64,000 nt of DNA from contig URLJ01000001.1 of the NCBI GenBank assembly GCA_900548675.1, positions 73,855 to 137,854 on the forward strand. The letters run 5' to 3'. A program made the translations under genes and the position numbers. The notes under the pieces are model-generated. The model worked only from the letters and a program-made list of their open reading frames with translations, ran no database searches and was not told where the DNA came from. Every line of letters begins with the position of its first letter. Positions within the stretch are counted from its first letter, which is position 1. Positions 42,346-62,259 of the stretch are shown here, one piece after another. The DNA comes from an uncultured Mollicutes bacterium. Lineage in GTDB: Bacteria > Bacillota_I > Bacilli_A > ML615J-28 > CAG-313.

Positions 42346-43364
42346 TAATCATCCACCTCGAATTCTTCATTTAATTCATCTGCTAATTCATCATCAATTG
42401 TCACACCATTATATTTCTCATCTTCAAAATTATCATCTTCTTCAATTCTATTCATTTGTTGAATTTGTTCTAACTTATTATTAAGCTCTTCCGCAATGTT
42501 GGTTTCTCCAATAACAATACGTTTTGTATATTTTTGAAGGTTTTGCATAACCTTATCAATCTCATCTCTTGGCGCCCAATCGTAAAATTTATTTTTATAA
42601 CCACGTTTTTCAAGGAACGCGCATAATTCACCAATTGATTCGAAATCTCCAACATTCTTTGCAGTTTTTGGAGTAAAATCGGCAGCTTTAGCAAGTTGGT
42701 CATATGCTCCAATAAGAGCTTTAACTTCAGTTCCAGTTTTGTTATATCCTTCTTCCTCTTTCCAAATTGCTTTCTCAATTTGATAAGATAACATACACAT
42801 TTTTCGCGCGTTATCTCGTTGAATAGCAGTTGTAATAGATTGAGTTTTATCAATTTCATTATACATATTTTCAAAATATAATAATTGTTCTTGAGTAAAA
42901 TCTCTTCCCCATTTTTCTTGCAAGTCTTTAAAATCTTCTTGACTTAAAAGTTTAATACGAGAACGAGTTTCATTATTTTGAATAATCATATCCCACTCGC
43001 GCTGAACTTCTTTCCAATTAATAGTTTCATAAATTTTACCCCAGTTTTGAGTTGCATACAACTTGAATGCACCTTGACCATTGCTATCAGCAAGTGTCAT
43101 CCAAACATTTGGGTCGAATGGTAAATCCGCATACTGACAAAACTTATCGGCTTTCTCAATATCATGACAATCTCCAAAATATTTATCTAAACACTCATTA
43201 CAAATATCAATATAACCGTCTGGAAAGAACCAAGAAGTACTGGCTAAATAACCATCTTGTCTGCGGTATTCACCACATTTACGGCAATTCTTGCCGACAA
43301 TTCGTGTTGCTTTTAAAGGTTCTACTCTATTACTATTATCACTAATCAAATCTTTAAAATCCAT
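42345..43364 (-). CDS. hypothetical protein with CxxC...CxxC zinc-ribbon (terminase small subunit candidate)
   Basis: Translationally coupled upstream of terL. Confidence 0.25.
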   Translation of the reverse strand: MDFKDLISDNSNRVEPLKATRIVGKNCRKCGEYRRQDGYLASTSWFFPDGYIDICNECLDKYFGDCHDIEKADKFCQYADLPFDPNVWMTLADSNGQGAFKLYATQNWGKIYETINWKEVQREWDMIIQNNETRSRIKLLSQEDFKDLQEKWGRDFTQEQLLYFENMYNEIDKTQSITTAIQRDNARKMCMLSYQIEKAIWKEEEGYNKTGTEVKALIGAYDQLAKAADFTPKTAKNVGDFESIGELCAFLEKRGYKNKFYDWAPRDEIDKVMQNLQKYTKRIVIGETNIAEELNNKLEQIQQMNRIEEDDNFEDEKYNGVTIDDELADELNEEFEVDD

Positions 43365-44644
43365 TATTTAGTCCCCTCCTTAGCTTTCTTTTCTTTCCTT
43401 TTCTCTCTATCACAAATCTTACATCTGGCGGCAAGGCCATCTCGTGAGTTTTGTTTCTGCGTAAAATTACGAATATCACGTAATAAGGTTTTCCCGCAAG
43501 TTGAACAAACTTTAAACTTTGATGGGTCATTTCTAGCTTCCCATGCATCTCGCGCCAACTGAGCAGTCTTTGCAATTTGGCCGCAAATCATTTTGGTATA
43601 AATTGTGCTAATATAGTTGTCACTATAATTTAAACCAAATTTTTGTTGTAATTCTTCTCTAATATATTCGTTTGTTGTTTTGTCAATTTTCCTAATTAAA
43701 ATATAACGACGAGCTTCACTTAAGTCAGCTTGGTCAATATAGTCCTCAAGTTCCCAAACTAAATACTTAAGGTCAGAATTCAGTTGCTCATAAGTTAACT
43801 GTTTAAGCTCTCCATAAAATTCTAAAAACCAATACACATGTGTCGGATTAGTAAAGTCAATATAATTCTTACTAACCTCAACCCATTCCCAACCATCAAT
43901 GCCGTTTCGTAGTTGTTCGGCAAGTTCCTCTTGCTCATTCGCATACCATGTTTCCCCAAAATGCTTACGGTAATGGTCTGCGCGCCAACTTTTATAACAC
44001 CAATCTGTGTAAAGGTCTTTTACATAACCCGTATCAGATGTATAAACAAATGGCACAGCACTACTAAAACTGAATTTTGCGCGAAGAGGTTCAACGTATG
44101 CGTCCTTAAGCGCAAATTGTTCTTGTCTAAGTTGAATTAGTAAGTGATTTTTCTTATAAAACTCAAGTCCAAGTTTTTGTTTCTCCTTAAGTTCCTTAAC
44201 TCTAGCAGCCAAAGGGTCAATAATGTCCCATAAGCCTCTCATACCAGGAATTTTAGCGTCAGGTCCGTCAGGGTTACGACTAATTGTCGGTTTAACTTTT
44301 TTGTAACAGTTGCGTTGGACAGGCTTAAACTGGGTTTCGTTTGTTAAGGGGTCTTCCAGTAGGGCGTCTAACGACTCAGCTTTCTTACGTTGGTAAGCGC
44401 TGTGAGCTTGCTCAATTTGAATTTCTTTAGTCTGGCAAAAGTTTTTGTCAGTTTTAGGGTCTTTGCCGTAAAGTATAAAGTTAGCAATTTTTTCTAAGTC
44501 AGCTTGAACAGACGGACTATCATAATTGGCTTCGTAGTAGTTGGCGGCGGAACCATTATTTTCTGAAAAAAGGTCGGAAACTTGGTTGGCACGGTCAACG
44601 TTCGAATAAAGGTTATAGTCTAAGTTTTTACTAATTAAGTCCAT
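43364..44644 (-). CDS. hypothetical protein with C-terminal zinc-ribbon; first gene of the leftward late operon
   Basis: 426 aa ending CSTCGK...CKICDREKRK. Confidence 0.25.
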   Translation of the reverse strand: MDLISKNLDYNLYSNVDRANQVSDLFSENNGSAANYYEANYDSPSVQADLEKIANFILYGKDPKTDKNFCQTKEIQIEQAHSAYQRKKAESLDALLEDPLTNETQFKPVQRNCYKKVKPTISRNPDGPDAKIPGMRGLWDIIDPLAARVKELKEKQKLGLEFYKKNHLLIQLRQEQFALKDAYVEPLRAKFSFSSAVPFVYTSDTGYVKDLYTDWCYKSWRADHYRKHFGETWYANEQEELAEQLRNGIDGWEWVEVSKNYIDFTNPTHVYWFLEFYGELKQLTYEQLNSDLKYLVWELEDYIDQADLSEARRYILIRKIDKTTNEYIREELQQKFGLNYSDNYISTIYTKMICGQIAKTAQLARDAWEARNDPSKFKVCSTCGKTLLRDIRNFTQKQNSRDGLAARCKICDREKRKEKKAKEGTK

Positions 44645-45081
44645 AGGCTGTCATATTCTCCTTTATAAATTTATATTGTGTCATAGTTGTGTCTCCTTTT
44701 AAGTTTAGTAGACAAGTAATTGTCTATAATTAAAGTATAAGGGAAAGTTGACGAAAAGTCAAGTAGGGGAGTTAGTATTAAAATAAGTGTAATTTCTGAA
44801 AAAAATTTTGGTCGGTAGGTGTAATTTTTAAAATAAAAATTAGTCAGTAGGTGTAATTTCCAGGTGACCCCGATACAATTTTGTCAAAAAGTAAAAGTCC
44901 CAAAACCCTTCCCCCAGTAGGATTTGCGGGCTCGCCTTTGCACCCCTTGTCAGAAAGACAACCGTTTGTCTGAGGTATAGCGTTTGTCAGAAAGTCAAAA
45001 AAAAGTTTGTCAAAAAAACAACTTTGTAATAATTTTGTAATATTGTAATATAAATGTAATGTAAATGTAATGTAAATGTTC

Positions 45082-45110
45082 TTGTATTTTCGACAGTTTT
45101 CGCATATAAT
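45082..45110 (+). promoter_or_regulatory. sigma-70/SigA-type promoter (TTGTAT-N17-TATAAT) preceded by TGTAAT x6 tandem repeats
   Basis: -35 at 45082-45087 and -10 at 45105-45110, in the divergent region. Confidence 0.4.
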
Positions 45111-45365
45111 AACATCATCAGGAGAAGGAAGGCGAAGGACTGAACCAAAAAGACAAAATATAATTATGTAAACCGTTCAGGTATTATGTAAACTATAAAT
45201 AAAATATGGCGTTTTGTCAAAAGGTCAAAAGGAGCTGGGTTTTGGTCGAAAAAGCTGGACTTCACCAGATGCAAAAAATTTAAAATTTTTTTCAAAAAAA
45301 AGCAGGAATTTTAAATTTTTTATAGAATATTATAATATAAAGATATGAAAGGAAGGAAGAAAAAA

Positions 45366-47200: not shown

Positions 47201-47313
47201 CAACTTACAAATAATTTAAAAATATTTTAATTTTTTTTGCATATTTTACTTGACATTTGGAAATAATTATAGTATAATATAATTACAAAAGGGAAAGGTA
47301 AAAGGTGGTTAAT

Positions 47314-47790
47314 ATGAAAAAAATATTTTTAGATTTAGATGGAACATTAGCAAAATTTAATGTAAGAAATGCTTTACAAAGATTTGATAAAGAAATTGGC
47401 TTTTTTGCAAAACTTGGAGCATATAAAGGAATTGAAACAATAAACGAATTAGCAAAAAATGGAAATGTATATATAATTTCAGCAAGTCCAAACACACAAG
47501 CAGATTTTGACAAAATAGTTTGGATAGAAAAATATTTAAACAATATACCAAAAGCAAATAGGCTAATTTGTAGAGTTGGAGAAAACAAAGCAGAATATTT
47601 AAAAACAAAAGGAATACAAATTGACAAAAATTGTTATTTGTTAGATGATTACACAAAAAACTTAACAGAATGGGAAACAGTTGGAGGAGTAGGCATTAAA
47701 AGAATTACAAAATGTGCTGATAATTCAACAAAAAAATGGTTAGGTTTAGAATTAAAAGATTTATGTAAACTAAGCGAAGTTTTGGCTTAG
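47314..47790 (+). CDS. HAD-superfamily 5'(3')-deoxyribonucleotidase-like protein (paralog 1)
   Basis: HAD motif I DLDGTL at the N-terminus. Later DD and K motifs. Paralogous to the 60875-61378 product. Confidence 0.5.
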   Translation: MKKIFLDLDGTLAKFNVRNALQRFDKEIGFFAKLGAYKGIETINELAKNGNVYIISASPNTQADFDKIVWIEKYLNNIPKANRLICRVGENKAEYLKTKGIQIDKNCYLLDDYTKNLTEWETVGGVGIKRITKCADNSTKKWLGLELKDLCKLSEVLA

Positions 47791-48322: not shown

Positions 48323-49021
48323 ATGAAAATTGATAAAAGAAAAAAATATTTAATGGTGTTAGATGTTGAAACTGCAAACTCAAATGTAGAAAAAGGTGCA
48401 AAAAACGATGGTTTAGTTTATGATTTAGGACTAACAGTAATTGATAAAAAAGGACAAATTTACGAAAAGAAAAGTTTTGCAATAAAAGAAATTTTTGACT
48501 GGTCTGAGCTTATGTCAACTGCTTATTATAAAAATAAATTACCAAAATATTATGAGAAATTAAAAAACAAAACAATGGAAAAAGTAAGTATTTGGACTGC
48601 ACGAAAAATAGTTAAAAATTTAATAGAAAAATATAATATAACAGAAGTTTATGCTTTTAATGCTTTATTTGATTATACAACATTAAATAACACAGTTAGA
48701 TATTTAAGTGGTTCAGGTTGTAGATGGTTTTTCCCTTATGGTACAAAAATATGTGATATTTGGCACATTGCTTGTCAAGTGTTAGGAACACAAAAAACTT
48801 TCCAATGGGAAAATGTTAGAAATGCAAAAGGAAATCTAATAACAAACGCAGAACGAATGTTTGGTTATATAGACCAAAATGAAGATTTTGAAGAAGAACA
48901 CACAGGACTTGCAGATACACTAATTGAGGGGCAAATACTTGTTCGTTGTTTTAATAATCATAAATCAATTGATAAAAAAATCAATAGAAGTTGTTGGAGA
49001 ATACCACAAAAAGTTGCTTAG
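48323..49021 (+). CDS. DEDDh 3'-5' exonuclease (DnaQ-like), paralog 1
   Basis: Exo I LDVETAN, Exo II YAFNALFD, Exo III HTGLADT. Paralogous to the 57683-58447 product. Confidence 0.55.
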   Translation: MKIDKRKKYLMVLDVETANSNVEKGAKNDGLVYDLGLTVIDKKGQIYEKKSFAIKEIFDWSELMSTAYYKNKLPKYYEKLKNKTMEKVSIWTARKIVKNLIEKYNITEVYAFNALFDYTTLNNTVRYLSGSGCRWFFPYGTKICDIWHIACQVLGTQKTFQWENVRNAKGNLITNAERMFGYIDQNEDFEEEHTGLADTLIEGQILVRCFNNHKSIDKKINRSCWRIPQKVA

Positions 49022-50562: not shown

Positions 50563-50591
50563 CCTTCTTTTTTTATACCATAATTACCATT

Positions 50592-50627
50592 TTATGTAAA
50601 CTTGGCTTGCCGGCGCGGTTTACATAA
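50592..50627. repeat. gene-terminal inverted-repeat element F
   Basis: TTATGTAAAC (50592-50601)...GCCGGCGCG...GTTTACATAA (50618-50627). A degenerate Cheo-like CAAACATTTGTTTG follows at 50649-50662. Confidence 0.55.
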
Positions 50628-50689
50628 CAACTTTACATAATGCCGCACCAAACATTTGTTTGTCAAATTTCAACTCTTTATTGCCGGCA

Positions 50690-50835
50690 CGCTCGCAGCC
50701 TACTGTCAAATTTCTACCACCCTCGCCGCCTCCTAAGGAGCTGCAAAGGAGCTGGGAGCTGCGTTGTCAAATTTTCGCCAGGAGCTGCGTTCAACCTCCC
50801 AGGTTTACATAATATGTTTACAGGAGCTGCAAAGC
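50690..50835 (+). repeat. GC-rich GGAGCTGC repeat island with TGTCAAATTT x3
   Basis: (A/C)AGGAGCTGC occurs 5 times and TGTCAAATTT(C) 3 times. The track ORF 50640-50852 is judged a spurious product of these repeats. Confidence 0.5.
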
Positions 50836-50906
50836 CAACGTTTGACTTTTAGTACAAATTCATGTATAATTATATTATAGAAAAAATAAAGAAAGGGTTG
50901 ATTTAA

Positions 50907-51212
50907 ATGGGTAATAGAGATAGAATAATTAGATGGGACGACGAAAACAATGCACACAGATATTTTGTTAATGGCAGATTAGTAGGATGTGGATATGACT
51001 TTTTAGAAGTATTCGAGAAAGCTGCACCATTCTTACACATTGGCAGAGAAATAGTAACTCGTCAAGTTTGTCTTTGTGATATTGACAGCGACTTATCAGA
51101 TACAAAAACAGGTATGATAGTAGATTTCTTAAACGAAGCTAAAAGATTAACAGAATTTCAAGAAAAAGCATTATACGAATTTGACTTCACATCTTTGTTA
51201 GAATTGATATAA
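50907..51212 (+). CDS. hypothetical protein (101 aa)
   Basis: RBS AAAGGGTTGA. Promoter at 50845-50875. Confidence 0.4.
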   Translation: MGNRDRIIRWDDENNAHRYFVNGRLVGCGYDFLEVFEKAAPFLHIGREIVTRQVCLCDIDSDLSDTKTGMIVDFLNEAKRLTEFQEKALYEFDFTSLLELI

Positions 51213-51219
51213 CGCACAT

Positions 51220-51248
51220 TTGACTTTTAGTTAAAAGTGTTATATAAT
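51220..51248 (+). promoter_or_regulatory. promoter of the tRNA/ncRNA operon (TTGACT-N17-TATAAT)
   Basis: -35 at 51220-51225 and -10 at 51243-51248. Confidence 0.55.
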
Positions 51249-51280
51249 ATTATTATAGAAAATAAATAATATTTTCTTAG

Positions 51281-51612
51281 CGATGAAAACCACCGTATCA
51301 GTGGCTAGTCGCACACAAATCCTTAGGTCAGTAATTAAGCGCAGTCATGATGGGCTTAGTGAAGGATAAGGTTGACTGTTAGTGAACGAGGACTATCAAG
51401 TTATCAGTAGGAAGAAACTGTTCCCAGGTTGTTGGAATCGGGGTGAGAGAACCAACCAGACCGAAACTGAAAGAGGCTCCGCACCTATGCGTTAAATGGC
51501 GATAGCAGAGATTAGTTATCTGCGAGTAAGAGACATATTATTTAATTAGTGCACACTCTCTTGCGTGCGGGGTTTGTATCATTTAGAACTATAGTCGCCC
51601 CGCAATTTATAT
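51281..51612 (+). ncRNA. structured RNA with group-I-intron-like core motifs (R-like GAACGAGGACTATCA, S-like AGAACTATAGTCGCC); no exons recognised
   Basis: P7-like pairing between GACTA (51392-51396) and TAGTC (51592-51596). Many nested hairpins. Lies between the promoter and tRNA-Leu(TAG). No ORF. Confidence 0.3.
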
Positions 51613-51689
51613 GCATTAGTATGCAAACTGGCAAAGCAGCTGGTCTTAGAAACCAGTGTATGAAAGTTCGACTCTTTCCTAATGCACCA
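51613..51689 (+). tRNA. tRNA with anticodon TAG (Leu by codon table) but class-I architecture (5-nt variable loop)
   Basis: Acceptor GCATTAG/CTAATGC, A73, CCA encoded. Anticodon stem CTGGT/ACCAG around loop CTTAGAA. T-arm GAAAG-TTCGACT-CTTTC. Confidence 0.6.
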
Positions 51690-51757
51690 AATTATGGTTT
51701 GCGAGGCACCCATCGGTGAGAGCTGCACATCTCACATGAGAAAACCTCGGTGCATAT

Positions 51758-51844
51758 GCACCTTTGGCGGAATAGGCAGACGCGTGGGACTTAAAATCCC
51801 ATGGACGAGAGTCCGTCCCAGTTCGATTCTGGGAAGGTGCACCA
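51758..51844 (+). tRNA. tRNA-Leu(TAA), class II with long variable arm
   Basis: Acceptor GCACCTT/AAGGTGC. Anticodon stem TGGGA/TCCCA around loop CTTAAAA. Variable arm TGGACGAGAGTCCGT. T-arm CCCAG-TTCGATT-CTGGG. CCA encoded. Confidence 0.7.
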
Positions 51845-52002
51845 GCAGGGCGAACCCGTAACGTCCCTTTGCAAATAGAATATCGGGTGGTGTGGATAAG
51901 CGAAGCTACAATGCTCAATAATAGTAGTTCTTGTTATTTATTTTTTCGTATACCATTTGGGTATACAGAACGCGCGGCGTCGCAAGCGACAGCCGTTTAT
52001 AT

Positions 52003-52089
52003 GGGTCTTTGGGTGAGCTGGCTAAAACCGCCAGACTGTAAATCTGGTCTCTTCGGAGTACCCTGGTTCGAATCCAGGAGGGCCCACCA
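52003..52089 (+). tRNA. tRNA-Tyr(GTA) with long variable arm
   Basis: Anticodon stem CCAGA/TCTGG around loop CTGTAAA. Variable stem CTC-TTCG-GAG. T-arm CCTGG-TTCGAAT-CCAGG. Acceptor GGGTCTT/AGGGCCC. CCA encoded. Confidence 0.65.
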
Positions 52090-52095
52090 TTATAT

Positions 52096-52171
52096 TCGCG
52101 GGTGGTGTAATTGGTAACACGACGGACTTTGACTCCGTAGAGTGTTGGTTCGAGACCAGCCCCGCGAGCCA
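52096..52171 (+). tRNA. tRNA-Gln(TTG)
   Basis: U1-A72 acceptor TCGCGGG/CCCGCGA. D-stem GTGT/ACAC. Anticodon stem ACGGA/TCCGT around loop CTTTGAC. T-arm GTTGG-TTCGAGA-CCAGC. G73 then CCA. Confidence 0.65.
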
Positions 52172-52254
52172 CAGCTACGCAAGTAGCGAAACACACCCCT
52201 TTCTTTTGTAGGTCAGCTGTCTCGTGTAGACCTGACAGCTGGCTAATTTCAAAT

Positions 52255-52283
52255 TTGACTTTTAGTGTGAATTTTGATATAAT
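52255..52283 (+). promoter_or_regulatory. internal promoter TTGACT-N17-TATAAT upstream of tRNA-Val
   Basis: -35 at 52255-52260 and -10 at 52278-52283. Confidence 0.5.
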
Positions 52284-52306
52284 ATTATTATAGTAAAAGT
52301 AAATAT

Positions 52307-52382
52307 AGTCCGTTAGCTCAGCTGGTAGAGCATCGCCCTTACAAGGCGGAGGTCGTTGGTTCGAACCCAACACGGACTACCA
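52307..52382 (+). tRNA. tRNA-Val(TAC)
   Basis: Acceptor AGTCCGT/ACGGACT. D-arm GCTC-AGCTGGTA-GAGC. Anticodon loop CTTACAA. T-arm GTTGG-TTCGAAC-CCAAC. CCA encoded. Confidence 0.7.
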
Positions 52383-52550
52383 TTCGAGGATAACTAACTG
52401 GTCTCACCTCTTTAAAAATGAGAACTCTGCTGCGGAGCGCGTACCATCGCAGGGACAAATAAATTAGGCGGAGCAATGCCCTAAATGCTCTGAACAAATA
52501 TGGGCACTTATATAGCGGGGTGGAGCAGTTGGCAGCTCGCCAGGCTCATA

Positions 52551-53111
52551 GAAAATTGTGGCTCCATGTAGAAATACATAGATGAACTGTGGATGAATTC
52601 AGAGGAGGCTAAGTCTTTTGGAAAAGAAAATTATAGGTTATGATGATGTATATACAATAGATACTAATGGTATTGTATATAGAAATGGTAAACCAATGTC
52701 CCCAAGGGATAATGGTATAGGTTATCAGCAAATAGGATTGCGTTTAAATCGCAGACGATACAATGTTTATATTCACAGATTGGTTTGGGAAACTTTTAAA
52801 GGAGATATACCAAATGGATATGAGATTAACCATATAGACCATAATAAACATAATAATAACTTAGATAATTTAGAGTTAGTATCTCACTCTACCAATTTAA
52901 AAAAATCAGTAGAAAGATATGGATACTATGGTTCTATGAATAGACCAAAAGATATGCGAACTTTGAGCCAAGCCGAAGATACATCTTCGGAAGGTGCAGA
53001 GACTACTGGAGAGGTATAGTCCTCTTAATAACCAGTTTAAGTATCCACTACCTAAGTCGTAAGATATGGTAAAGACATAGTCCACTCTATAATGAAAATT
53101 ATAGGTAAGTA
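52551..53111 (+). mobile_element. group-I-like intron carrying an HNH homing endonuclease ORF
   Basis: R-like TTCAGAGGAGGCTAAGTC (52598-52615) and S-like AAAGACATAGTCC (53071-53083) could pair to form P7 (GGCTA/TAGTC). The ORF lies between them, and its RBS GAGGAGG (52602-52608) is embedded in the R element. Confidence 0.45.
52618..53019 (+). CDS. intron-encoded HNH homing endonuclease (TTG start)
   Basis: Layout typical of phage HNH homing endonucleases (HNH_3/NUMOD-like): conserved YIHRLVW, then EINHIDHNKHNNNLDNLELVSHSTN. RBS 9 nt upstream of the TTG start. Confidence 0.55.
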   Translation: MEKKIIGYDDVYTIDTNGIVYRNGKPMSPRDNGIGYQQIGLRLNRRRYNVYIHRLVWETFKGDIPNGYEINHIDHNKHNNNLDNLELVSHSTNLKKSVERYGYYGSMNRPKDMRTLSQAEDTSSEGAETTGEV

Positions 53112-53177
53112 AACCCGAAGGTCGTAGGTTCAAATCCTACTCCCGCAACCAATAGAAGATCATAGAGGTTGGTAAAA

Positions 53178-53459
53178 ATGGCAATTATCTATTATATAGA
53201 CAACAAAGCAAACTGGAAAGGATATGTTGGTTGTTCTAAAACTCCACTATCTCATAGATGGGGGAAACATAAATATTTATTAAGGCATAACCTACATTCT
53301 AACAAGGAACTGCAAGATGACTGGAATAAATATGGAGAGCACAGCTTTAGTGCTTTTGTTATAGAAACCTGCCCAGATAGTAAGATGCTAGAGAGAGAAA
53401 AGTATCATATAAACAGATTACAAACAAATGTCAGAGGGGTTGGGTACAACCAGAAGTAA
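53178..53459 (+). CDS. GIY-YIG endonuclease, catalytic-domain-only (93 aa)
   Basis: IYYIDNKANWKGYVGCS...R...KH...E...N is the classic GIY-YIG motif set. Starts 27 nt after the tRNA-Met 3' exon. No DNA-binding extension. Confidence 0.5.
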   Translation: MAIIYYIDNKANWKGYVGCSKTPLSHRWGKHKYLLRHNLHSNKELQDDWNKYGEHSFSAFVIETCPDSKMLEREKYHINRLQTNVRGVGYNQK

Positions 53460-53748
53460 CTGATTTTTAAGAGGGATAGTTTGGTGGGCACCTCACCATT
53501 AAGAGCTGGTGCTGAATTGGACAACTATTATTTGCTACCAATTATTTGAAAAAAGTTTTAAAAAAGACTTGATTCAAGGTAGCAACATAGTTTATAATAT
53601 AAATGTAAAATGAAAAAGGAAAAATAAAAAAGACTTCTAATCCTTTACCATTTAGCGTAATAGCTCTGGTTTATTAGAAGCAAAAAATATTTATTTTAGA
53701 AAGGGTATCCAATTGGCTGCTATAAGGTTGGATATTAGGGTGAAAATT

Positions 53749-54000
53749 ATGGCTAAAGAAAGATTTAATGTAATGGGAAAAGAACTTACTGCAAATGAAA
53801 AAGCAGTATATGAATTCGTAAGGGACAACGGAGTAGTTGATTACAAGATGGTTGCTGAAAAACTAAATATCAGTCCAAAGAGTGCATCAAGCACACTAGC
53901 AAGACTAGAAGCAACTCATTCACTATTAAAGAAAAATGCTCCAAAAGTTGCTACAACTTATGAAGTAGAAGCTGAAGCTGACGAAGTTGAAGCTGAATAG
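53749..54000 (+). CDS. small winged-helix-like protein, family W paralog 1
   Basis: MAKERFNVMGKELTANEKAVYEFV...SPKSASSTLARLEATHSLLKK aligns with four other copies. Acidic C-terminus. Confidence 0.4.
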   Translation: MAKERFNVMGKELTANEKAVYEFVRDNGVVDYKMVAEKLNISPKSASSTLARLEATHSLLKKNAPKVATTYEVEAEADEVEAE

Positions 54001-54002
54001 TA

Positions 54003-54040
54003 ATAGGAGTATCGGCTTAGCCGAGCTCCTATAATATATT
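54003..54040 (+). terminator. hairpin terminator (weak T-tract)
   Basis: ATAGGAG-TATCGGCTTAGCCGA-GCTCCTAT. Confidence 0.35.
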
Positions 54041-54366
54041 AAGGTTTTTATTCTTCACAATATAAAAGGGGTTGCTTGTGGTTGCCCCAACCAAAAACAT
54101 AAGTGGTGGTAGGTTTGCTCGTTAGGGGCTGCGAGGGTAAATAAAGAACAGCAGAACTGGTTGCATAATACGAGTGGCAAGGCAAGAGCCTTGTCTTTTT
54201 TTTATTTTTTAATTTTAGACTTGACAAACGGTACTTGCATATGATAAAAAAACTTTTTTATTTTTTTTTGCAAAAAAGACTTGACGAGATCCCTTAAAAT
54301 GAATTATAATTATTATAATGGGAGTGATATATATAAAAAAAAAGAAAAATTTACGGAGATGATATT

Positions 54367-54858
54367 ATGTGGAAATCGTATGATGATATATATGAGATAA
54401 GCACTGGTGGTAAGATAAGAAATAAGAAAAGTCCTGATAAGATATTAAAGACATATGTTAATAATTGTGGATATGAGAAATTCAAGGGCCACAATGTACA
54501 TCAGTATGTACATAGAATGGTAGCGGAGACATTCATACCTAATCCATCTGGTAAAGAACAAGTGAACCATAAAAATGGGGATAAGCTGGATAACAGGGCA
54601 GAAAATCTTGAATGGGTAACTCGTAGTGAGAACGTATCTCACGCTTATAAGTGCCTAGGAAGAAAACGTAGTTACTGTGGTTCAAAAGGACATAATGCTA
54701 AAAAGGTATATCAGTATTCATTAGAAGGTCAGCTCCTTACTACCTATAATTCGGTGGGTGCAGCTGCAGAAGCTGTCGGAGGTGCAAGTCCTAACATCAG
54801 CAGATGTTGCAATGGGCATATTAAAACATACAAAAACTTTGTATGGAAAAATGAATAA
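54367..54858 (+). CDS. HNH homing endonuclease (free-standing)
   Basis: YVHRMVAETF and NHKNGDKLDNRAENLEWVTRSEN follow the same pattern as the intron-encoded HNH. Own promoter TTGACG...TATAAT at about 54287-54320. Confidence 0.5.
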   Translation: MWKSYDDIYEISTGGKIRNKKSPDKILKTYVNNCGYEKFKGHNVHQYVHRMVAETFIPNPSGKEQVNHKNGDKLDNRAENLEWVTRSENVSHAYKCLGRKRSYCGSKGHNAKKVYQYSLEGQLLTTYNSVGAAAEAVGGASPNISRCCNGHIKTYKNFVWKNE

Positions 54859-54913
54859 AAATACTTGACTTGTCCTTCCTTAAAGATTTATGATATAATG
54901 GGAGAGTATTATT

Positions 54914-54927
54914 AAAAAAAAAAAAAA
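54914..54927 (+). repeat. A14 homopolymer at the 5' end of an ORF-less transcript
   Basis: 14 consecutive A immediately after TATAATGGGAGAG. Confidence 0.7.
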
Positions 54928-55345
54928 TAGATCCCAGCTCCCTTAGCCTGATCCAGCTCCAAATCCCAGCTCCCACCTAAGGGGTTAGCTATGAGGGCGC
55001 AGCTCCAGATTGCTACCAGGGGATAGGTGGCAATGAATTATTTCCTGGGAAATATTTGCTAGCAAAAAATGGGTAGACTCCCCCCTCCCCTTCTTCTGGC
55101 AGTTAGATCTCATTACACGGCTCGGGTCTAACTATCGCCCACATAATTAATTTTTCTTTTCCTCCTTTCTTTATAATATAATTATACATCTTTCAGCTCC
55201 CAATAGTCAAGTATTTTTTGAAAAATTTTAGCAGCTCCCATTGCCCCCCACCTTCCAGCTCCCATAGCGCAGCTCCGGTAGGTAAAGCGCAGCTCCCACC
55301 CAGCTCCCAATAGGTGGCAATGCCAGCTCCCTGCTACCAAATTAT
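54928..55345 (+). repeat. CCAGCTCC(C) / ATAGGTGGCAA repeat island (the minus strand reads GGGAGCTGG)
   Basis: At least 10 copies of CAGCTCC and 3 copies of ATAGGTGGCAA in two blocks (54928-55010 and 55193-55345). Promoter-driven with no credible ORF; the track ORF 55182-55433 (-) is judged a spurious product of these repeats. Confidence 0.5.
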
Positions 55346-55492
55346 AGGTGGCAACACCTGATCTGATCCACCTTGACCGGATCTCTTGCCCTTGGGATAA
55401 TTTTTGCAATAAATTTTTAAAAAAGACTTGCATTTTACTCCATAATTTGATATAATTATATTGTAAATAAAAAAGAAAGGAAGAGTGGTAAA

Positions 55493-55672
55493 ATGAAACA
55501 AAAACTAATTAAAAAATTGCACGATCTAATGCTACAAATAATTACTTGTAATGATGCTGAACTTGACAAGATAGGAATTGAACTTGCCGAAATAGAAAAA
55601 CAATTAATTAATTGGCAAGAAAAAAATCTCAAAAAAAATAAAAAAATACTTGACTTTAAGGACAAGATGTAG
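55493..55672 (+). CDS. small hypothetical protein (59 aa)
   Basis: RBS AAAGGAAGAGTGG before ATG 55493. Its 3' end overlaps the next promoter. Confidence 0.35.
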   Translation: MKQKLIKKLHDLMLQIITCNDAELDKIGIELAEIEKQLINWQEKNLKKNKKILDFKDKM

Positions 55673-55740
55673 TATAATTAATATATCAAATGAAGAAATA
55701 AAAGAAAAGTAAAAAAAGTTAAAAAAATTAAAAAAAACAC

Positions 55741-55769
55741 TTGACTTTTAAATCTGAATTTGATATAAT
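55741..55769 (+). promoter_or_regulatory. consensus promoter TTGACT-N17-TATAAT
   Basis: -35 at 55741-55746 and -10 at 55764-55769. Confidence 0.55.
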
Positions 55770-55833
55770 ATATATGTAAATAAAAAAAGAAAGGGCATTA
55801 ACAAATTAGTCGGTTAATGTAATGGTGATTAAA

Positions 55834-56079
55834 ATGGCTAAAACAAAAGAATTATTTAATGTTAGAGGAGTAAACTTAACTGCTCACGAAAAAAATGTTT
55901 ACGACAAAGTAAAGGAATTAGGCACTGTTGACTACAACCAAGTAGCAACTGCTTGTAATGTATCTACTAAGTCTGCTATTGCAACATTAGCAAGATTAGA
56001 AAAAACTCACGGTTTATTAAGAAAAAATGAACCAGTAAAAGTAACTACTTATGAAGTTGCTGATGTAGAGGGCGAATAG
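55834..56079 (+). CDS. small winged-helix-like protein, family W paralog 2
   Basis: MAKTKELFNVRGVNLTAHEKNVYDKV...STKSAIATLARLEKTHGLLRKNEPVKVTTYEV. Confidence 0.45.
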   Translation: MAKTKELFNVRGVNLTAHEKNVYDKVKELGTVDYNQVATACNVSTKSAIATLARLEKTHGLLRKNEPVKVTTYEVADVEGE

Positions 56080-56092
56080 TCCTCTTTTTTTA
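56063..56092 (+). terminator. intrinsic terminator
   Basis: AGAGG-gcgaatagt-CCTCT followed by T7. Confidence 0.5.
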
Positions 56093-56104
56093 TTTACTGT
56101 AAAG

Positions 56105-56118
56105 CGAACAAATGTTTG
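56105..56118. promoter_or_regulatory. LexA Cheo-box-like site CGAACAAATGTTTG
   Basis: GAAC-N4-GTTT, 8 nt upstream of a TTGACA. Confidence 0.4.
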
Positions 56119-56207
56119 TCAAATACTTGACAAAAAATTTTTTTATTTTTTTTATTAAAAATACTTGACTTTGTGGGGGAAAGTGTGATATAATTAAAGG
56201 GGAAGTA

Positions 56208-56227
56208 TTTTTTTTTTTTTTTTTTTT
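56208..56227 (+). repeat. T20 homopolymer
   Basis: 20 consecutive T directly downstream of promoter 56170-56198, at the 5' end of an ORF-less GC-rich transcript. Confidence 0.7.
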
Positions 56228-56271
56228 AGTAGCTTCGCAGCTGCCACAGCAGCAGCTCAGCTCCCAGCTCC

Positions 56272-56291
56272 GACACACCCGGGTGCGTTGT
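56272..56291 (+). repeat. conserved 21-nt motif copy 1 (GACACACCCGGGTGCGTTGT)
   Basis: Member of the 7-copy family with consensus TGATACGCCCGGNTGAGTTGTA. Confidence 0.5.
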
Positions 56292-56352
56292 TGCCCCCCG
56301 TTAGGGGGTAAGGGGCTAGGTGGTTGCCCCTGGGTTGGGTTAACCCAAGATC

Positions 56353-56374
56353 TGATACGCCCGGTTGAGTTGTA
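56353..56374 (+). repeat. conserved 21-nt motif copy 2 (TGATACGCCCGGTTGAGTTGTA), flanked by AGATCT and preceded by the GGGTTAACCC palindrome
   Basis: Direct sequence match. Confidence 0.55.
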
Positions 56375-56403
56375 AGATCTTTTTGATCCGGGAGAGGATC
56401 TCA

Positions 56404-56425
56404 CGATACGCCCGGATGAGTTGTC
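56404..56425 (+). repeat. conserved 21-nt motif copy 3 (CGATACGCCCGGATGAGTTGTC)
   Basis: Direct sequence match. Confidence 0.55.
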
Positions 56426-57334: not shown

Positions 57335-57465
57335 CTTTTGGCCCCCCCAAAAAAAATTAAAAAAATTACAAAAAACTATTGACTTTCACTTGCATTTTTG
57401 CTATAATTATGTTAGAGGTGGAGGAGAGCCCCTTATAAAAAAGATCTTCCTTTAGATCATCTGAT

Positions 57466-57487
57466 GATACGCCCGGATCAGTTGTAT
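57466..57487 (+). repeat. conserved 21-nt motif copy 4 (TGATACGCCCGGATCAGTTGTA)
   Basis: Sits in an ORF-less unit behind promoter 57383-57412, preceded by the AGATCT...AGATC inverted repeat. Confidence 0.55.
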
Positions 57488-57682
57488 GGGTTGGGATGCT
57501 CCCAAAAAAATTAAAAAAAATATAAAAAAAGTATTGACTTTTGATTTGGTCTATGATATACTTAATATGTAATCAAGGAAAGACACCAAAGAAAAAAAAT
57601 AAAAAAAATTATAAAAAAGTGTTGACACTGATTAGAAAGTATGTTATAATAAATATGTAATTAAGAAAGGAAAGTGAATTAA

Positions 57683-58447
57683 ATGGAAACAAAAGGTTAT
57701 CCACAAAAACAAAAAAATATCAATGTTAGAAAGGTTAAAAATGTTTTAGGAATTGATACTGAAACTATAATGGACTTACAAAATGCAATGCCATTTGATA
57801 TCGGTTATGTTGTTTACAATAACAAAGAAGATAAAATCGAAAAACAAGGAACTTATCTTGTTAGAAAGTTTGTAAATAATAAATACATTATTTTATCAAG
57901 TTGGAGTGCTAACAAGTACGAAAGATATTATAAACCACTTTTAAACACTAAAACAAAAGATGTTAAAGTTGAAAGTGTAGAAAAAATAGCAAAAGAATTT
58001 GCTAAAATAATTAAAAAATATGATATCAAATATATGTTTGCACACAATGGACAATTTGATTATCAAGCACTTAAAAGATTATTTGAAGATGTTGGAGTTA
58101 AAAACCCTTTTGAAAATCTTGATATAATTGATACAATGATGTTAAGTTATAAAACTATTACAACTACAAAAGAATATGAAAACTTTTGTAAAGAAAATAA
58201 AAACATCACAAAATTACAAGATAAAAAAGTTGTTAGTCGTTTTATTACTGATAGTAATAGAGTAAGACAAACTGCCGAAAGTATCTTCGCATTTATAGAT
58301 AAAAATATTGATTTTGAAGAAAATCACACAGGACTTGAAGATATAAAAATTGAATTAGAAATCTTTAAGTATTGCAAGGGTAAAAAAGCAATTTTCCCTA
58401 TCAATACACAACCAACTTGGCGTGATTTTGCAAAATTAGAAAGTTAA
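57683..58447 (+). CDS. DEDDh 3'-5' exonuclease (DnaQ-like), paralog 2
   Basis: Exo I GIDTETI, Exo II HNGQFDY, Exo III HTGLEDI. Confidence 0.5.
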   Translation: METKGYPQKQKNINVRKVKNVLGIDTETIMDLQNAMPFDIGYVVYNNKEDKIEKQGTYLVRKFVNNKYIILSSWSANKYERYYKPLLNTKTKDVKVESVEKIAKEFAKIIKKYDIKYMFAHNGQFDYQALKRLFEDVGVKNPFENLDIIDTMMLSYKTITTTKEYENFCKENKNITKLQDKKVVSRFITDSNRVRQTAESIFAFIDKNIDFEENHTGLEDIKIELEIFKYCKGKKAIFPINTQPTWRDFAKLES

Positions 58448-58585
58448 AAAAACTTTCTTTTTTTTGTAAAAAAGTATTGACTTTATACCAAAACAATGCT
58501 ATAATTATAATGGGGGTGGATGATGATGATATATATAACAACGCCGCCTGGCGTGTCATAAACGTCCCCCTTGGGTTAACCCAAA

Positions 58586-58607
58586 TGATACACCTGGATG
58601 AGTTGTA
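58586..58607 (+). repeat. conserved 21-nt motif copy 5 (TGATACACCTGGATGAGTTGTA), preceded by the TTGGGTTAACCCAA palindrome
   Basis: Sits in an ORF-less unit behind promoter 58477-58505, whose transcript starts ATAATGGGGGTGG. Confidence 0.55.
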
Positions 58608-58745
58608 GACAAAAGCCTAGAATAAAAAAGTTAAAAAAGTTTTAAAAAACTATTGACAATGACCTAATACTATGCTATAATATATATGTAAGATAAAGAA
58701 AGATATATCTTACAAATGATTATTTAAGAAAGGAAAGTGATACAA

Positions 58746-58976: not shown

Positions 58977-59119
58977 TGCATCTTTTTTTATTATTGCATC
59001 AGGTATAAAAAAAATAAAAAAAAATTGCAAAAAAGTATTGACTTTTGTTTCACAAAATGATATAATTATAATGGGAGAGAATAATAATAATATAAAAAAA
59101 GATCTAGGGGTGGATCTGA

Positions 59120-59141
59120 TGACACGCGTGGGTGAGTTGTA
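59120..59141 (+). repeat. conserved 21-nt motif copy 6 (TGACACGCGTGGGTGAGTTGTA)
   Basis: ORF-less unit behind promoter 59036-59064. Preceded by AGATCTAGGGGTGGATCT. Confidence 0.55.
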
Positions 59142-59238
59142 AGAAAGTTAAAAAAAATTAAAAAACTTTTAAAAAAGTATTGACTTTAATCTAATAAAGT
59201 GGTATACTTAATATGTAATCAAGAAAGGAATGAAAAAA

Positions 59239-60040: not shown

Positions 60041-60251
60041 TAGTGCAAAAAAAAATTAAAAAAATTTGCAAAAAAGTATTGACTTTATACTTAAAGAGTG
60101 ATATAATTATAATGGGGGAGAATAATAATATATAAAAAAAACGATCTACTTTTGGATCACAAAAAAATGAAAAAACTTTAAAAAAAATATTGACTTTATA
60201 CCATTTATTTGGTATAATATATATGTAAGATAAAGAAAGGAATGATTAAAA

Positions 60252-60841: not shown

Positions 60842-60874
60842 TCTTTACAAAAAAAATGAAAGGAATTGATTAAA

Positions 60875-61378
60875 ATGAGAAAAGCCGATAACCTACCTAT
60901 TAAATGGGTGTTAGATATGGACGACACACTAGCACACTTTCACGAACAAAAAAACGCACTTGAAAGATTTGCTACTGAAAAAAACTTCTTTAATATTTTG
61001 AAACCTAGTAAAATGACAAAGTTTATCAAACAACTTGTTGAACGCAACGAACTTGACGCAAAAGATATTTTTATTGTTAGTGCTTCACCTAATGAACAAG
61101 CCGACAAAGATAAACTACAATGGATTGAAAGACACTTGCCTGAAATACCAAAAAGTAACATTATGTTTACAAGACTTGGAGAAAATAAAGCCGAATTGTT
61201 TATCAATAAATACCACTTATCAAAAGATGACTTCAAGTATTTTATGCTAATTGATGACTACACAAAAAACCTTATTGAGTGGAAAAACTTTGGTGGAATT
61301 GCTAAAAAGTACATCAATGAATACAACAACACAACAAAGAACTATCTTAACTACAACATCAGTACAATAGTATTATAA
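60875..61378 (+). CDS. HAD-superfamily 5'(3')-deoxyribonucleotidase-like protein (paralog 2)
   Basis: DMDDTLAHF (HAD motif I). Collinear with the 47314-47790 product (ISASPN, WIEKYL/WIERHL, GENKAE, LLDDYTKNL/LIDDYTKNL). Confidence 0.5.
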   Translation: MRKADNLPIKWVLDMDDTLAHFHEQKNALERFATEKNFFNILKPSKMTKFIKQLVERNELDAKDIFIVSASPNEQADKDKLQWIERHLPEIPKSNIMFTRLGENKAELFINKYHLSKDDFKYFMLIDDYTKNLIEWKNFGGIAKKYINEYNNTTKNYLNYNISTIVL

Positions 61379-61391
61379 ATGATAAATCAAA

Positions 61392-61417
61392 AGACTAATA
61401 ACAAAGTCTTTTTTATT
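61392..61417 (+). terminator. intrinsic terminator
   Basis: AAGACT-aataaca-AAGTCTT followed by T6. Confidence 0.5.
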
Positions 61418-61428
61418 ATAATAACTAT

Positions 61429-61500
61429 AACACAAACAACACAAACACAAACACAAAGTCAAACACAAACAACACAAAGTCAAAGACAAAGTCAAACCAA
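61429..61500 (+). repeat. CA-rich microsatellite-like tract (ACACAAAC / ACAAAGTCAA units)
   Basis: Generates the low-complexity TQTQSQ track ORF 61379-61579, judged non-coding. Confidence 0.5.
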
Positions 61501-61733
61501 AATACTTAAAACACTATCTGTACCACCTAGCATAGCACGATACGAACAAAACGGAACAAAAAGACCAATTATATTATAAAGATAAAACACGCCTAAAAAC
61601 GCCCTTAAAATGCGTCTAGTGGTGTATTAAAAAAATAGGGTTGGATCGATAGGAAATAAAAAAAGACTTTTAGAAATTAAAAAGTCTTTTGCTACAAACT
61701 TATGTTTGCTATTTCTTGCAAGTTGCCAAACAC

Positions 61734-61747
61734 CGAACAAGTGTTTG
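61734..61747. promoter_or_regulatory. LexA Cheo-box-like site CGAACAAGTGTTTG
   Basis: GAAC-N4-GTTT. Confidence 0.4.
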
Positions 61748-61790
61748 AGTCTTAGCATTCTAATCCCGAGAGTGCCAACATAAACACGAA

Positions 61791-61805
61791 CGAACAAGCG
61801 TTCAG
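61791..61805. promoter_or_regulatory. LexA Cheo-box-like site CGAACAAGCGTTCAG
   Basis: GAAC-N4-GTTC with both half-sites perfect. Confidence 0.45.
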
Positions 61806-61829
61806 CTGAAGGGGGGATATGTTTAGTAA

Positions 61830-61850
61830 TGATACGCCTGGGTGCGTTGT
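61830..61850 (+). repeat. conserved 21-nt motif copy 7 (TGATACGCCTGGGTGCGTTGT)
   Basis: Direct sequence match. Confidence 0.5.
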
Positions 61851-61865
61851 TATGGGTGCATGCGT

Positions 61866-61980
61866 CCTATACGAAATCACATATTCAATTTTCTGTACCT
61901 ATACGAAATCACTTACTCAATTTCTGCTAGTTCACTCACTCAATTTCTCATTCCCGAAATCACTTACCCAGTTTCTACTT
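61866..61980. repeat. four iteron-like direct repeats (~30-bp period; core ATCACTTACTCAATTTCT)
   Basis: CCTATACGAAATCACATATTCAATTTTCTG, CCTATACGAAATCACTTACTCAATTTCTG, TTCACTCACTCAATTTCTC, CGAAATCACTTACCCAGTTTCTAC. Confidence 0.6.
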
Positions 61981-62259
61981 CTCGGGCTCTCCCTTTAGTA
62001 TTTTCAGAATACTTTCCTCTCTGTGTATAGCTATGTTACATTTTTCGTAAGCGCCTTGGCTATCATTTTCACAAAAAGTAATTCCTCTTTCAAGTTCATG
62101 AACTGCTTTCGCTATTATATCTTTCAATTCTTGGTTTTGTCTAGTCAAAATTCTTACTTTTCTTTCCAAGTCTTCTATTTTTTCATTTATTTGATAACCG
62201 CTAGCTACATCTCCATCAGGACTTGTGACTAAACATCCAGATTCATAATCATAAAACAT
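61975..62259 (-). CDS. hypothetical protein with coiled-coil segment
   Basis: 94-aa ORF. Last gene of the leftward operon. Confidence 0.35.
   Translation of the reverse strand: MFYDYESGCLVTSPDGDVASGYQINEKIEDLERKVRILTRQNQELKDIIAKAVHELERGITFCENDSQGAYEKCNIAIHREESILKILKGEPEK

Follow-up and report, generated by a model that had tools for sequence, protein, structure and literature searches.

The DNA analyzed here, a 64,000-nucleotide (nt) stretch of contig URLJ01000001.1 (referred to below as the window), is a segment of an AT-rich phage genome (approximately 30% GC) that contains four GC-rich islands devoid of open reading frames (ORFs) and composed of repeats of the heptamer GGAGCTG or of its reverse complement, CAGCTCC. 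Within the window two parts were distinguished: (i) a structural module on the minus strand (2.4-44.6 kb), encoding tail proteins, the portal (38989-40563), the large terminase (40564-42345) and a sigma-like protein (43364-44644), and (ii) an early, host-takeover-like region on the plus strand (45-61 kb), with many small ORFs, approximately 30 near-consensus TTGAC(A/T)-17-TATAAT promoters, five transfer RNA (tRNA) genes and homing endonuclease genes. All four islands are located in the early region. The portal shares 27-35% identity with the portals of Enterococcus, Lactococcus (949 group) and Bacillus phages. A megablast comparison of the window with GenBank phages gave a sole match of 44 bp, to Roseobacter phages, and the phage therefore has no close cultured relative. 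Its relatives originate overwhelmingly from human-gut metagenomes, in which this phage family, without a cultured member, is widespread. In a search of genome contigs for the host, the sole match was a 6.7-kb contig binned in a Christensenellaceae metagenome-assembled genome; the binning of such a short, presumably phage-derived contig is weak evidence as to the host. The functional statements made below are drawn from sequence comparison.

The heptamer GGAGCTG occurs 28 times in the window (both strands), as compared with a mean of 2.0 and a maximum of 5 in dinucleotide-preserving shuffles. Of these copies, 18 fall within the four islands, which form local GC peaks (GC content of 0.48-0.54, vs. 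approximately 0.30 for the window), so the islands proposed in a preliminary description of this DNA are real. Outside them the word is unremarkable, with 10 copies (4 on the plus and 6 on the minus strand) against 5.0 expected under a third-order Markov model and rank 412 among 6232 heptamers, which points to local clustering rather than to genome-wide enrichment.

Island 1 (50737-50829, plus strand) carries five GGAGCTG copies, at 50737, 50748, 50755, 50781 and 50823. Four of them have the form GGAGCTGC and one the form GGAGCTGG, so that its initial rendering as five copies of GGAGCTGC was right in number and slightly overstated in sequence. The island, which also holds the motifs TGTCAAAT and GTTTACATAA, is placed behind a terminator and upstream of a promoter (TTGACT-17-TATAAT; 50842-50870, plus strand) driving a 101-amino-acid ORF (50907-51212), and hence is not part of the leader RNA; its copies lie at -19 to -105 relative to the -35 box of that promoter. 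Island 2 (array X1; 54935-55006, plus strand) contains four CAGCTCC copies (54935, 54954, 54967 and 55000) spaced by 19, 13 and 33 nt, and island 3 (array X2; 55194-55330, plus strand) contains seven (55194, 55232, 55256, 55270, 55290, 55301 and 55324) spaced by 38, 24, 14, 20, 11 and 23 nt. Together these 11 copies, and the three occurrences of ATAGGTGGCAA (55023, 55310 and 55344), agree with the at least 10 CAGCTCC copies and three further repeats reported initially. In island 4 (56238-56271, plus strand) the array consists of CAGCTG (56238), CAGCTC (56253) and two CAGCTCC copies (56258 and 56265). Across the islands, the spacings between copies are irregular (7-42 nt) and do not follow multiples of three. 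Conservation defines the word TYSCAGCTCCMA, with approximately 7-10 informative positions, and the extended consensus across relatives is T-Y-S-CAGCTCC-M-A.

Relatives were collected by means of a neighboring 80-amino-acid winged-helix protein, which yielded 7 IMG/VR loci, 31 metagenome loci and further contigs, while those of island 1 (loci L166 and L169-L173) were collected by means of the flanking 144- and 101-amino-acid proteins. The arrays were found at homologous places in more than 50 related loci, every locus covering those places having them, and they persist down to approximately 58-61% identity of the neighboring winged-helix protein (L164 and L178). In 54 loci (505 kb, redundant) CAGCTCC is present 385 times on the early-transcription strand and 23 times on the opposite one, i.e., 94% of the copies are in the transcribed sense. 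The copy number differs between relatives (3-5 in X1, 3-7 in X2 and 2-4 in island 4) and the spacers are poorly alignable: the motif columns of X1 are 68-71% identical to those of L134 and L133, as opposed to 35-48% for the spacer columns, and in the X2 alignment the respective values are 59-65% and 38-52%. Variable copy number and spacing, combined with decayed spacers, are in keeping with redundant short recognition sites rather than a folded RNA or a gene.

In all of the relatives the features follow one another in a fixed order: (i) winged-helix gene A, a terminator, and a distal promoter with a GGGAGAGTATTATTA start and an A-run; (ii) array X1, a palindrome resembling a Noc-binding site, and the palindrome TTTGCTAGCAAA; (iii) a minus-strand mini-unit, array X2 and a GATC cluster; (iv) a proximal promoter, a gene for a 59-amino-acid protein, and winged-helix gene B; (v) a LexA-type box and a second distal promoter with a GGGGAAGTA start and a T-run (T20 in the window, up to T35 elsewhere); and (vi) array 4, followed by copies of the 20-mer GAYACRCSYGGNTGMGTTGT. 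An exact 26-mer from island 4, used as a query, matched only this phage family. A generic IMG/VR scan for three spaced CAGCTCC copies was uninformative for the islands; the unrelated loci inspected among the matches listed were all coding Pro/Ala repeats with spacings in multiples of 3. For the islands themselves such a Pro/Ala-rich coding reading was rejected, given the absence of a 3-nt periodicity in the spacings (7-42 nt) and of a conserved frame. No reading frame is kept across the window, L133, L134, L156 and L004, the similarities being spread over several frames and both strands, which is what conservation of the nucleotide sequence would give, and the 82-amino-acid stop-free stretch on the minus strand of the window falls into two different frames in L133. 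The islands are thus non-coding and the minus-strand ORFs called in them spurious, as had been presumed, and no frame-conserved ORF emerged in these relatives to suggest otherwise. Rfam searches at gathering and at permissive thresholds gave no match on the islands.

The most telling comparison concerns island 1, which is absent from all of the relatives obtained via the winged-helix protein. In L166 and L169-L173 (81-97% protein identity to the window) it is placed between the same terminator and promoter, and is composed of 7-11 copies of the palindrome CAGCTG, some of them CAGCTA, without any GGA. The alignment gives copy-by-copy orthology (e.g., caGGAGCTGcaaag in the window vs. ccGCAGCTGcaaag, and ggGAGCTGcgt vs. 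ggCAGCTGcgt). Every alignable copy in the window has undergone the same C-to-G change and has a fixed G before it, producing GGAGCTG(C), which is the exact reverse complement of the (G)CAGCTCC or GCAGCTCC of islands 2-4 in the same genome. Since only a reader of duplex DNA equates GGAGCTG with CAGCTCC, recognition of double-stranded DNA by a trans-acting factor is indicated, and the parallel changes in separate copies imply that the word itself is under selection. The conversion finds a reason in the composition of the genome, which is a mosaic of two phage types joined in the tRNA and homing endonuclease region: the 42-52.4 kb part matches CAGCTG-type phages (L166/L171; 93-95% identity), and the 53.4-64 kb part matches CAGCTCC-type phages (L001-L003; 95-98% identity). 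Among the relatives, a locus with both island 1 and islands 2-4 was sought, and the window proved to be the sole case. The simplest reading is that island 1 would have been re-tuned to the factor that reads islands 2-4. A G-quadruplex or i-motif reading of the arrays was dropped, as G3 tracts are not constant among them, occurring as single GGG runs in L133 and not at all in the CAGCTG arrays.

The islands were described from the outset as lying in promoter-driven regions, and the promoter analysis of the window agrees with this, with islands 2-4 behind consensus promoters. The distal promoter in front of X1, referred to as GGG-type (TTGACT-18-TATGAT / TATAAT; 54865-54899, plus strand), has the reported transcript start (GGGAGAGTATTATTA, beginning with GGGAGAG) and A14 tract (54914-54927); its GGGAGAGTATTATTA leader is kept even in the distant relatives L156 and L178. 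A second promoter of this type (TTGACT-18-TATAAT; 56165-56194, plus strand) has a GGGGAAGTA start followed by T20 at 56208-56227; the equivalent T-run is 14-35 nt long in relatives, and L156 has a hairpin plus T5 instead. Array X1 extends from approximately +35 to +110 relative to the 54866 start, and the array of island 4 from approximately +40 to +70 relative to the 56165 start. Many metagenome contigs begin or end exactly at the T-run of island 4 (L133 at 2841, L134 at 10555, L145 at 6381, and others), which is probably a homopolymer assembly break and less probably a real DNA end.

Some copies of the word are located inside core promoters: GGAGCTG is found in the -35/-10 spacer of the minus-strand mini-unit promoter in the window and 20 loci, and the motif is also present in the -35/-10 spacer of a plus-strand promoter in 12 loci. 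Furthermore, the -10 box and leader of the promoter behind island 1 (50862-50885) recur as an inverted copy (92%) at the minus-strand promoter within islands 2 and 3, i.e., that of the mini-unit; the GGAGCTG arrays therefore point at the same promoter class in both places. Of the three arrays of islands 2-4, only X1 has a minus-strand promoter upstream (55210).

The mini-unit itself (55064-55210, minus strand) consists of a promoter (TTGACT-18-TATAAT; 55210 to 55181) with GGGAGCTG in its spacer, a perfectly Shine-Dalgarno-like leader (AAAGAAAGGAGGAAAAGAAAAA), and, downstream, a hairpin (AGTTAGA...TCTAACT), a G-run (GGGGAGGGGGGAG), GAGTCTACCC and a T-run. No other stretch of the region is as well conserved (66-88% identity). 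Two paralogous versions are present in the family, and L154 has both, arranged as array-unit-array-unit-array. The hairpin of version B shows a compensatory double change (CAAGC/GCTTG in L004 vs. CAGAC/GTCTG in L133), and G-U-compatible change is also seen in the mini-unit hairpins. A peptide gene was rejected, as the 13-amino-acid ORF lacks its ATG and frame in L134, L152 and L154, and the unit is a candidate small RNA. Two hairpins have a G-U pair that is possible only in plus-strand RNA (TGCTACC...GGTGGCA). The array RNAs, by comparison with shuffles, fold no better than chance (z-scores of +0.5 and -1.5 for the plus-strand X1 and X2 RNAs, respectively, and +1.5 for the minus-strand X1 RNA).

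Four paralogous genes encoding 80-amino-acid winged-helix proteins (at 53749, 55834, 57046 and 59781) lie beside the islands. This protein family is confined to these phages; of its 69 clusters, nearly all share 60% identity or more with the query. The AlphaFold model shows a winged-helix/helix-turn-helix (HTH) fold (predicted local distance difference test score of 83.5), whose nearest structural matches are the DNA-binding domains of Lrp/AsnC, MarR and MntR, with weak E-values (at least 0.027); the same families were obtained in a PDB profile search. The fold search of this model returned generic HTH domains only, without a more particular relationship to, e.g., centromere-binding or Rep proteins, and searches of the small early proteins against PHROGs, Pfam and PDB gave no informative family beyond a weak MarR/DtxR-type HTH and no Rep match. 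Across 32 homologues, conservation is highest in the predicted recognition helix (KSAIATLARL), a finding that fits an invariant DNA word. All 385 plus-strand CAGCTCC copies come from the 54 loci bearing a winged-helix gene, and seven loci without the gene have none of them, with CAGCTG arrays instead; in the CAGCTG-type loci the gene was not seen in the parts available. A factor binding the arrays would probably be phage-encoded, and the winged-helix paralogs are the obvious candidates.

Sequences resembling the sites of host DNA-binding proteins accompany the islands. Directly behind X1, TATTTCCTGGGAAATA (55039-55054) matches the consensus Noc-binding site TATTTCCCGGGAAATA at 15 of 16 positions; Noc is limited to Firmicutes (PMC7383237). 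It is the only match in the window (0.02 expected) and is kept in 24 related loci, the copy of L134 matching at 16 of 16 positions. The site is immediately followed by the palindrome TTTGCTAGCAAA (55055-55066), and the two point to the use of the islands as protein-binding DNA. The Noc-like site further suggests a Firmicutes host and a possible recruitment of Noc by the phage DNA. Boxes of the pattern CGAACnnnnGTTYG, which we take to be the type bound by LexA in Gram-positive bacteria (Cheo), give 5 matches in the window against 0.08 expected (at 49080, 56105, 57321 and 61734); they are usually located between the terminator of a winged-helix gene and the next promoter, and are conserved in L133, L134, L174 and L178.

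GATC is strongly avoided. The window has 24 sites vs. approximately 109 expected, and 20 of these are located between 54.2 and 61.7 kb, nearly all in non-coding DNA. The other four are at 5148, 33416, 53158 and 63772, and outside the early region approximately 50 kb of largely coding DNA holds only 3 sites. Within the early region the sites form clusters (54288-56400, 57443-57479, 59101-59116 and 60143-60158), often as GATC-N8-GATC pairs or hairpins, followed by the 20-mer GAYACRCSYGGNTGMGTTGT. A cluster of three (55360-55383) marks the right edge of X2, upstream of the promoter at 55428-55456 and the 59-amino-acid gene (55493-55672), and has equivalents in L133, L134 and L178. CATG is also depleted in the window (63 vs. 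152). Taken together, the boxes and GATC sites show that the islands are dense in protein-recognition DNA, and they suggest that host chromosome-organizing proteins may be recruited.

Several further elements of the early region were distinguished. Island 4 is continued by a GC-rich element (56272-56425, plus strand) bounded by three copies of the 20-mer GAYACRCSYGGNTGMGTTGT (56272, 56354 and 56405) and containing hairpins with GATC stems; its RNA has a fold z-score of -2.5, and it is nearly identical in L004, although the genes on either side share only 73-86% identity. Six copies of the 20-mer fit the pattern exactly, all of them on the plus strand; the remaining three are at 58587, 59121 and 61831. 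Four more ORF-less units (57379-57500, 58477-58610, 59038-59145 and 60079-60165) share one layout: a consensus promoter, a GGGRGAG(A/T)AT(A/T)AT(A/T)A start, an A-run, a GATC hairpin, the 20-mer GAYACRCSYGGNTGMGTTGT and the next promoter. At 54350-54893, a free-standing gene for an HNH/NUMOD endonuclease, equipped with a GGG-type promoter of its own, is an insertion relative to L001-L003 and splits the non-coding region. A group I intron (Rfam RF00028, with 40.8 bits scoring below the family threshold) interrupts a tRNA(CAT) gene of initiator/elongator type (52515-53150); the intron holds an HNH endonuclease ORF (52618-53019), and a GIY-YIG ORF (53169-53459) follows. The tRNA the gene is uninterrupted in relatives (L133, 501-577; L134, 8532-8608). 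In front of the tRNA cluster and behind a promoter (51220-51248) is a GC-rich, ORF-less stretch of approximately 320 nt (51280-51600) without an Rfam match, which could be a structured RNA of a new type. Two early gene pairs are duplicated, one HAD-type 5'-nucleotidase-like (47305-47790 and 60866-61378), with NT5C matches in relatives and reminiscent of dmp of phage T5, and the other DEDD exonuclease-like (48323-49021 and 57683-58447). The divergent late/early control region (44650-45350) and the stretch 50571-50735 have motifs in common with island 1 (TTTGTCAAA, ATGTAAAC / GTTTACATA), which may represent another family of binding sites. Finally, a repeat block at the switch between plus- and minus-strand genes (61400-62000) comprises ACAAAC / ACAAAGTCAAA runs and four CGAAATCACTTACTCAATTTCT-like units, together with a LexA-type box and one copy of the 20-mer. 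Clusters of ACAAAG are again present in relatives, and the block is an alternative candidate origin of replication.

The reading of the islands that we favor, with reserve and as somewhat short of an even chance, is that they are clustered sites at which a sequence-specific regulator recognizes double-stranded DNA, i.e., operator-type arrays with the core word SCAGCTCC, equivalent to GGAGCTGS on the opposite strand. Two observations agree with what is expected of such arrays: the word lies at, inside or next to core promoters, and it is under selection independently of its flanks. From the conservation, orientation, position and concerted change of the motif, all of which are observed directly, we infer that a protein binds the arrays, that one of the winged-helix paralogs may be this protein, and that it would control transcription rather than replication. 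The protein would bind the arrays with avidity and could (i) occlude the promoters that have a site in their spacer, namely the mini-unit promoter at 55210 and the plus-strand promoter of many relatives, (ii) sit just downstream of the GGG-type start sites at 54866 and 56165, and (iii) occupy the DNA upstream of promoters of the class TTGACT...TGTATAATTATATTATA (50842 and 55210). The outcome would be the timing or shut-off of some immediate-early transcription units in the host-takeover region.

Known arrays of a comparable kind are bound by the omega repressor of inc18 plasmids (heptads) and, upstream of the late promoter of lactococcal phage TP901-1, by the Alt activator (direct repeats). 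The islands share with them a 7-10 bp word in one orientation around or inside promoters, a variable copy number and a small DNA-binding protein encoded nearby. They differ in that the copies are irregularly spaced (7-42 nt) rather than contiguous or phased, in that they also occur downstream of start sites, and in that the candidate binder appears to be a winged-helix protein of an undescribed family. Several points weigh against the operator-type reading. The irregular spacing, with no helical phasing, is unusual for cooperative binders. The near-uniform orientation of the word (385 vs. 23 copies) is not needed by a simple operator model; it may reflect common descent only, or it could reflect a polar process. 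The retained GATC sites and the A14 and T20-T35 tracts are unexplained by transcriptional control. As to the binder, the link between the winged-helix paralogs and the arrays is one of co-occurrence, biased by retrieval through that very protein, and only two of the four paralog genes in the window have an array behind them.

The strongest competitor, although unlikely, is an origin of replication, an idea that the preliminary description had raised in naming the repeats as possible iterons. In this scheme the islands would be iteron-like arrays of a transcription-activated phage origin, for which ColE1 and the origin of Lactococcus phage c2 are precedents: an initiator would bind the arrays, the A14 and T20-T35 tracts would unwind, the promoters would open or prime the origin, and the antisense unit would serve as a copy-control-like countertranscript. 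The layout resembles the iterons of theta plasmids and phage origins in its direct repeats by an A/T-rich tract and a winged-helix gene, its promoters reading towards the repeats and its antisense unit. In the window, repeats of one orientation adjoin long dA:dT tracts (A14 at X1, T20 at island 4), consensus promoters point into the arrays, the antisense mini-unit is conserved and has a promoter of its own, winged-helix genes are adjacent, and GATC sites are retained only in the array region. In addition, a minus-strand RNA through X1 would be G-rich (GGGGAGGGGGGAG, GGGAGCTGGG) and consequently prone to R-loops. On the other hand, X2, the largest array, has no detectable upstream minus-strand promoter and would be transcribed only in the C-rich sense, by which R-loops are disfavored.

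The repeats also depart from classical iterons in their form and surroundings. Their word is much shorter (7-10 bp, irregularly spaced, vs. phased iterons of 17-22 bp), there are at least three separate, dispersed arrays plus copies in promoter spacers, and island 1 amounts to no more than the DNA upstream of a small gene. No enrichment of DnaA boxes was seen (23 matches to TTATCCACA with at most one mismatch vs. 21 expected, none clustered in the islands). No replication gene was found in the early region scanned, and the neighboring winged-helix proteins are single 80-amino-acid domains without a Rep family match. The repeat block at 61.4-62.0 kb is at least as good a candidate. To sum up this comparison, the homopolymer tracts, the GATC sites and the antisense unit fit an origin better than pure transcription control, whereas the length of the word, its irregular spacing and the copies in promoter spacers are less compatible with it; the arrays, though not classical iterons, may act like protein-binding DNA sites by A/T homopolymer tracts.

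A role at the RNA level is less probable still. Here the islands would be untranslated leaders in which CAGCUCC is read in the transcript, either as a sponge for an RNA-binding protein or a complementary RNA, or as a Rho loading platform. The placement of islands 2-4 directly behind consensus promoters with a conserved initial transcribed sequence is in keeping with this, as are the transcribed sense of 94% of the family copies, the C-rich unstructured stretches (z-scores of +0.5 and -1.5), as would be needed for exposed single-stranded sites, and the two hairpins relying on a G-U pair found only in plus-strand RNA. Against it stands island 1, which is outside the leader, reads as the reverse complement and is palindromic in relatives, so that no single RNA word unites the islands, while one duplex DNA word does. 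Moreover, the copies in promoter spacers are left unexplained, the array of island 4 is preceded by a U-run of 14-35 nt (in L156 by a terminator-like hairpin) that should lower transcription into the array, and there is no Rfam match.

The particular form of this idea put forward initially, a CsrA/RsmA sponge, is not supported. The islands resemble CsrB/RsmZ RNAs in a word repeated many times, in GGA on one strand and in an ORF-less region behind a promoter. They differ from them in that the GGA strand is mostly untranscribed (in islands 2-4 it is the minus strand, of which only 54935-55006 is downstream of a minus-strand promoter), in that there is no hairpin-loop presentation (minus-strand X1 RNA, z = +1.5), and in that GGA is absent from the orthologues of island 1; Rfam again gives no match. 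Docking sites on DNA for a regulatory protein are most likely what the arrays would be, rather than a sponge RNA or a recombination hotspot.

It is doubtful that the islands are cis elements of genome ends, acting in DNA entry, end protection or concatemer processing as such elements do in phages like T5 or T7. In T7, irregular heptamer arrays adjoin the terminal repeats. The resemblance to T5, whose terminal repeat includes untranslated repeat regions and the injection stop signal, extends to ORF-less repeat regions in the first-expressed part of the genome (bioRxiv 10.1101/866236), to their splitting by an HNH insertion in some members (here 54350-54893, absent from L001-L003), to inverted copies kilobases apart, to boxes for host DNA-binding proteins, and to the two dmp-like 5'-nucleotidase paralogs. 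The Noc site could tether the DNA to the membrane, and many assemblies stop at the T-run of island 4. Yet breaks at long homopolymers are an ordinary assembly artifact, no terminal repeat is demonstrable from the assembled contigs from which these phages are known, nor are they known to inject their DNA in two steps, and the terminase gene lies at a distance of 12 kb. Portal and terminase have their relatives among Firmicutes phages (Enterococcus, Lactococcus 949 group and Bacillus) and not in T5, i.e., in another lineage with hosts of another phylum, and the boxes found here are Noc- and LexA-type, without enrichment of DnaA boxes.

Equally doubtful is a variant in which the Noc site, LexA boxes, GATC pairs and oriented arrays form a phage platform mimicking the chromosome-organization signals of the host. 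Such a platform would load nucleoid-occlusion and repair proteins of the host early onto the first-expressed DNA, with membrane tethering and/or a block of division as the result, and would correspond, in Firmicutes, to what the DnaA-box model proposes for the injection stop signal of T5. In the literature collection searched, no paper dealt with Noc-binding sites in a phage genome; to our knowledge, a functional Noc site would be the first case of a phage recruiting the nucleoid-occlusion system.

There is little to suggest that the islands are slippage-prone or mobile GC clusters devoid of function, like those of AT-rich yeast mitochondrial DNA. Copy number and spacing do differ between close relatives, L178 has four contiguous CCAGCT units, and island 1 is far more variable than its flanks; but the word and its positions persist family-wide while the spacers decay, the parallel C-to-G changes in the island 1 copies imply selection, and the word has not spread elsewhere in the genome. 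Least credible, and unlikely despite its mention in the preliminary description, is a Chi-like hotspot, here in the form of sites attenuating host AddAB/RecBCD entering from a DNA end between islands 1 and 2: the word is indeed asymmetric and G-rich on one strand, islands 2-4 are uniformly oriented (385 vs. 23 copies across relatives), the arrays on either side of 50.8-54.9 kb face each other in the window, and phage P1 concentrates oriented Chi sites near its packaged ends, but the strand count in the window gave no enrichment or skew outside the islands (10 vs. 5.0; 4 plus, 6 minus), the palindromic CAGCTG array of island 1 in six close relatives is at odds with an orientation-dependent signal, L001-L003 have no opposite-sense array within 9 kb upstream, and the word is unlike every experimentally defined Chi in bioRxiv 10.1101/2021.07.08.451572 (including those of Escherichia coli, Bacillus subtilis, Staphylococcus aureus, Lactococcus lactis and Haemophilus influenzae).

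Early host-takeover regions of large virulent phages are usually read as strings of tiny genes. In the phage family described here, much of this region is conserved non-coding DNA with a clear grammar of fixed-start consensus promoters, homopolymer tracts, oriented heptamer arrays, a small antisense unit, and boxes matching Noc and LexA sites. Should the arrays be operators of the winged-helix proteins, they would constitute a new regulatory circuit, and the switch from CAGCTG to GGAGCTG within this mosaic genome would offer a compact illustration from nature of how cis-sites become re-tuned to a new trans-factor.

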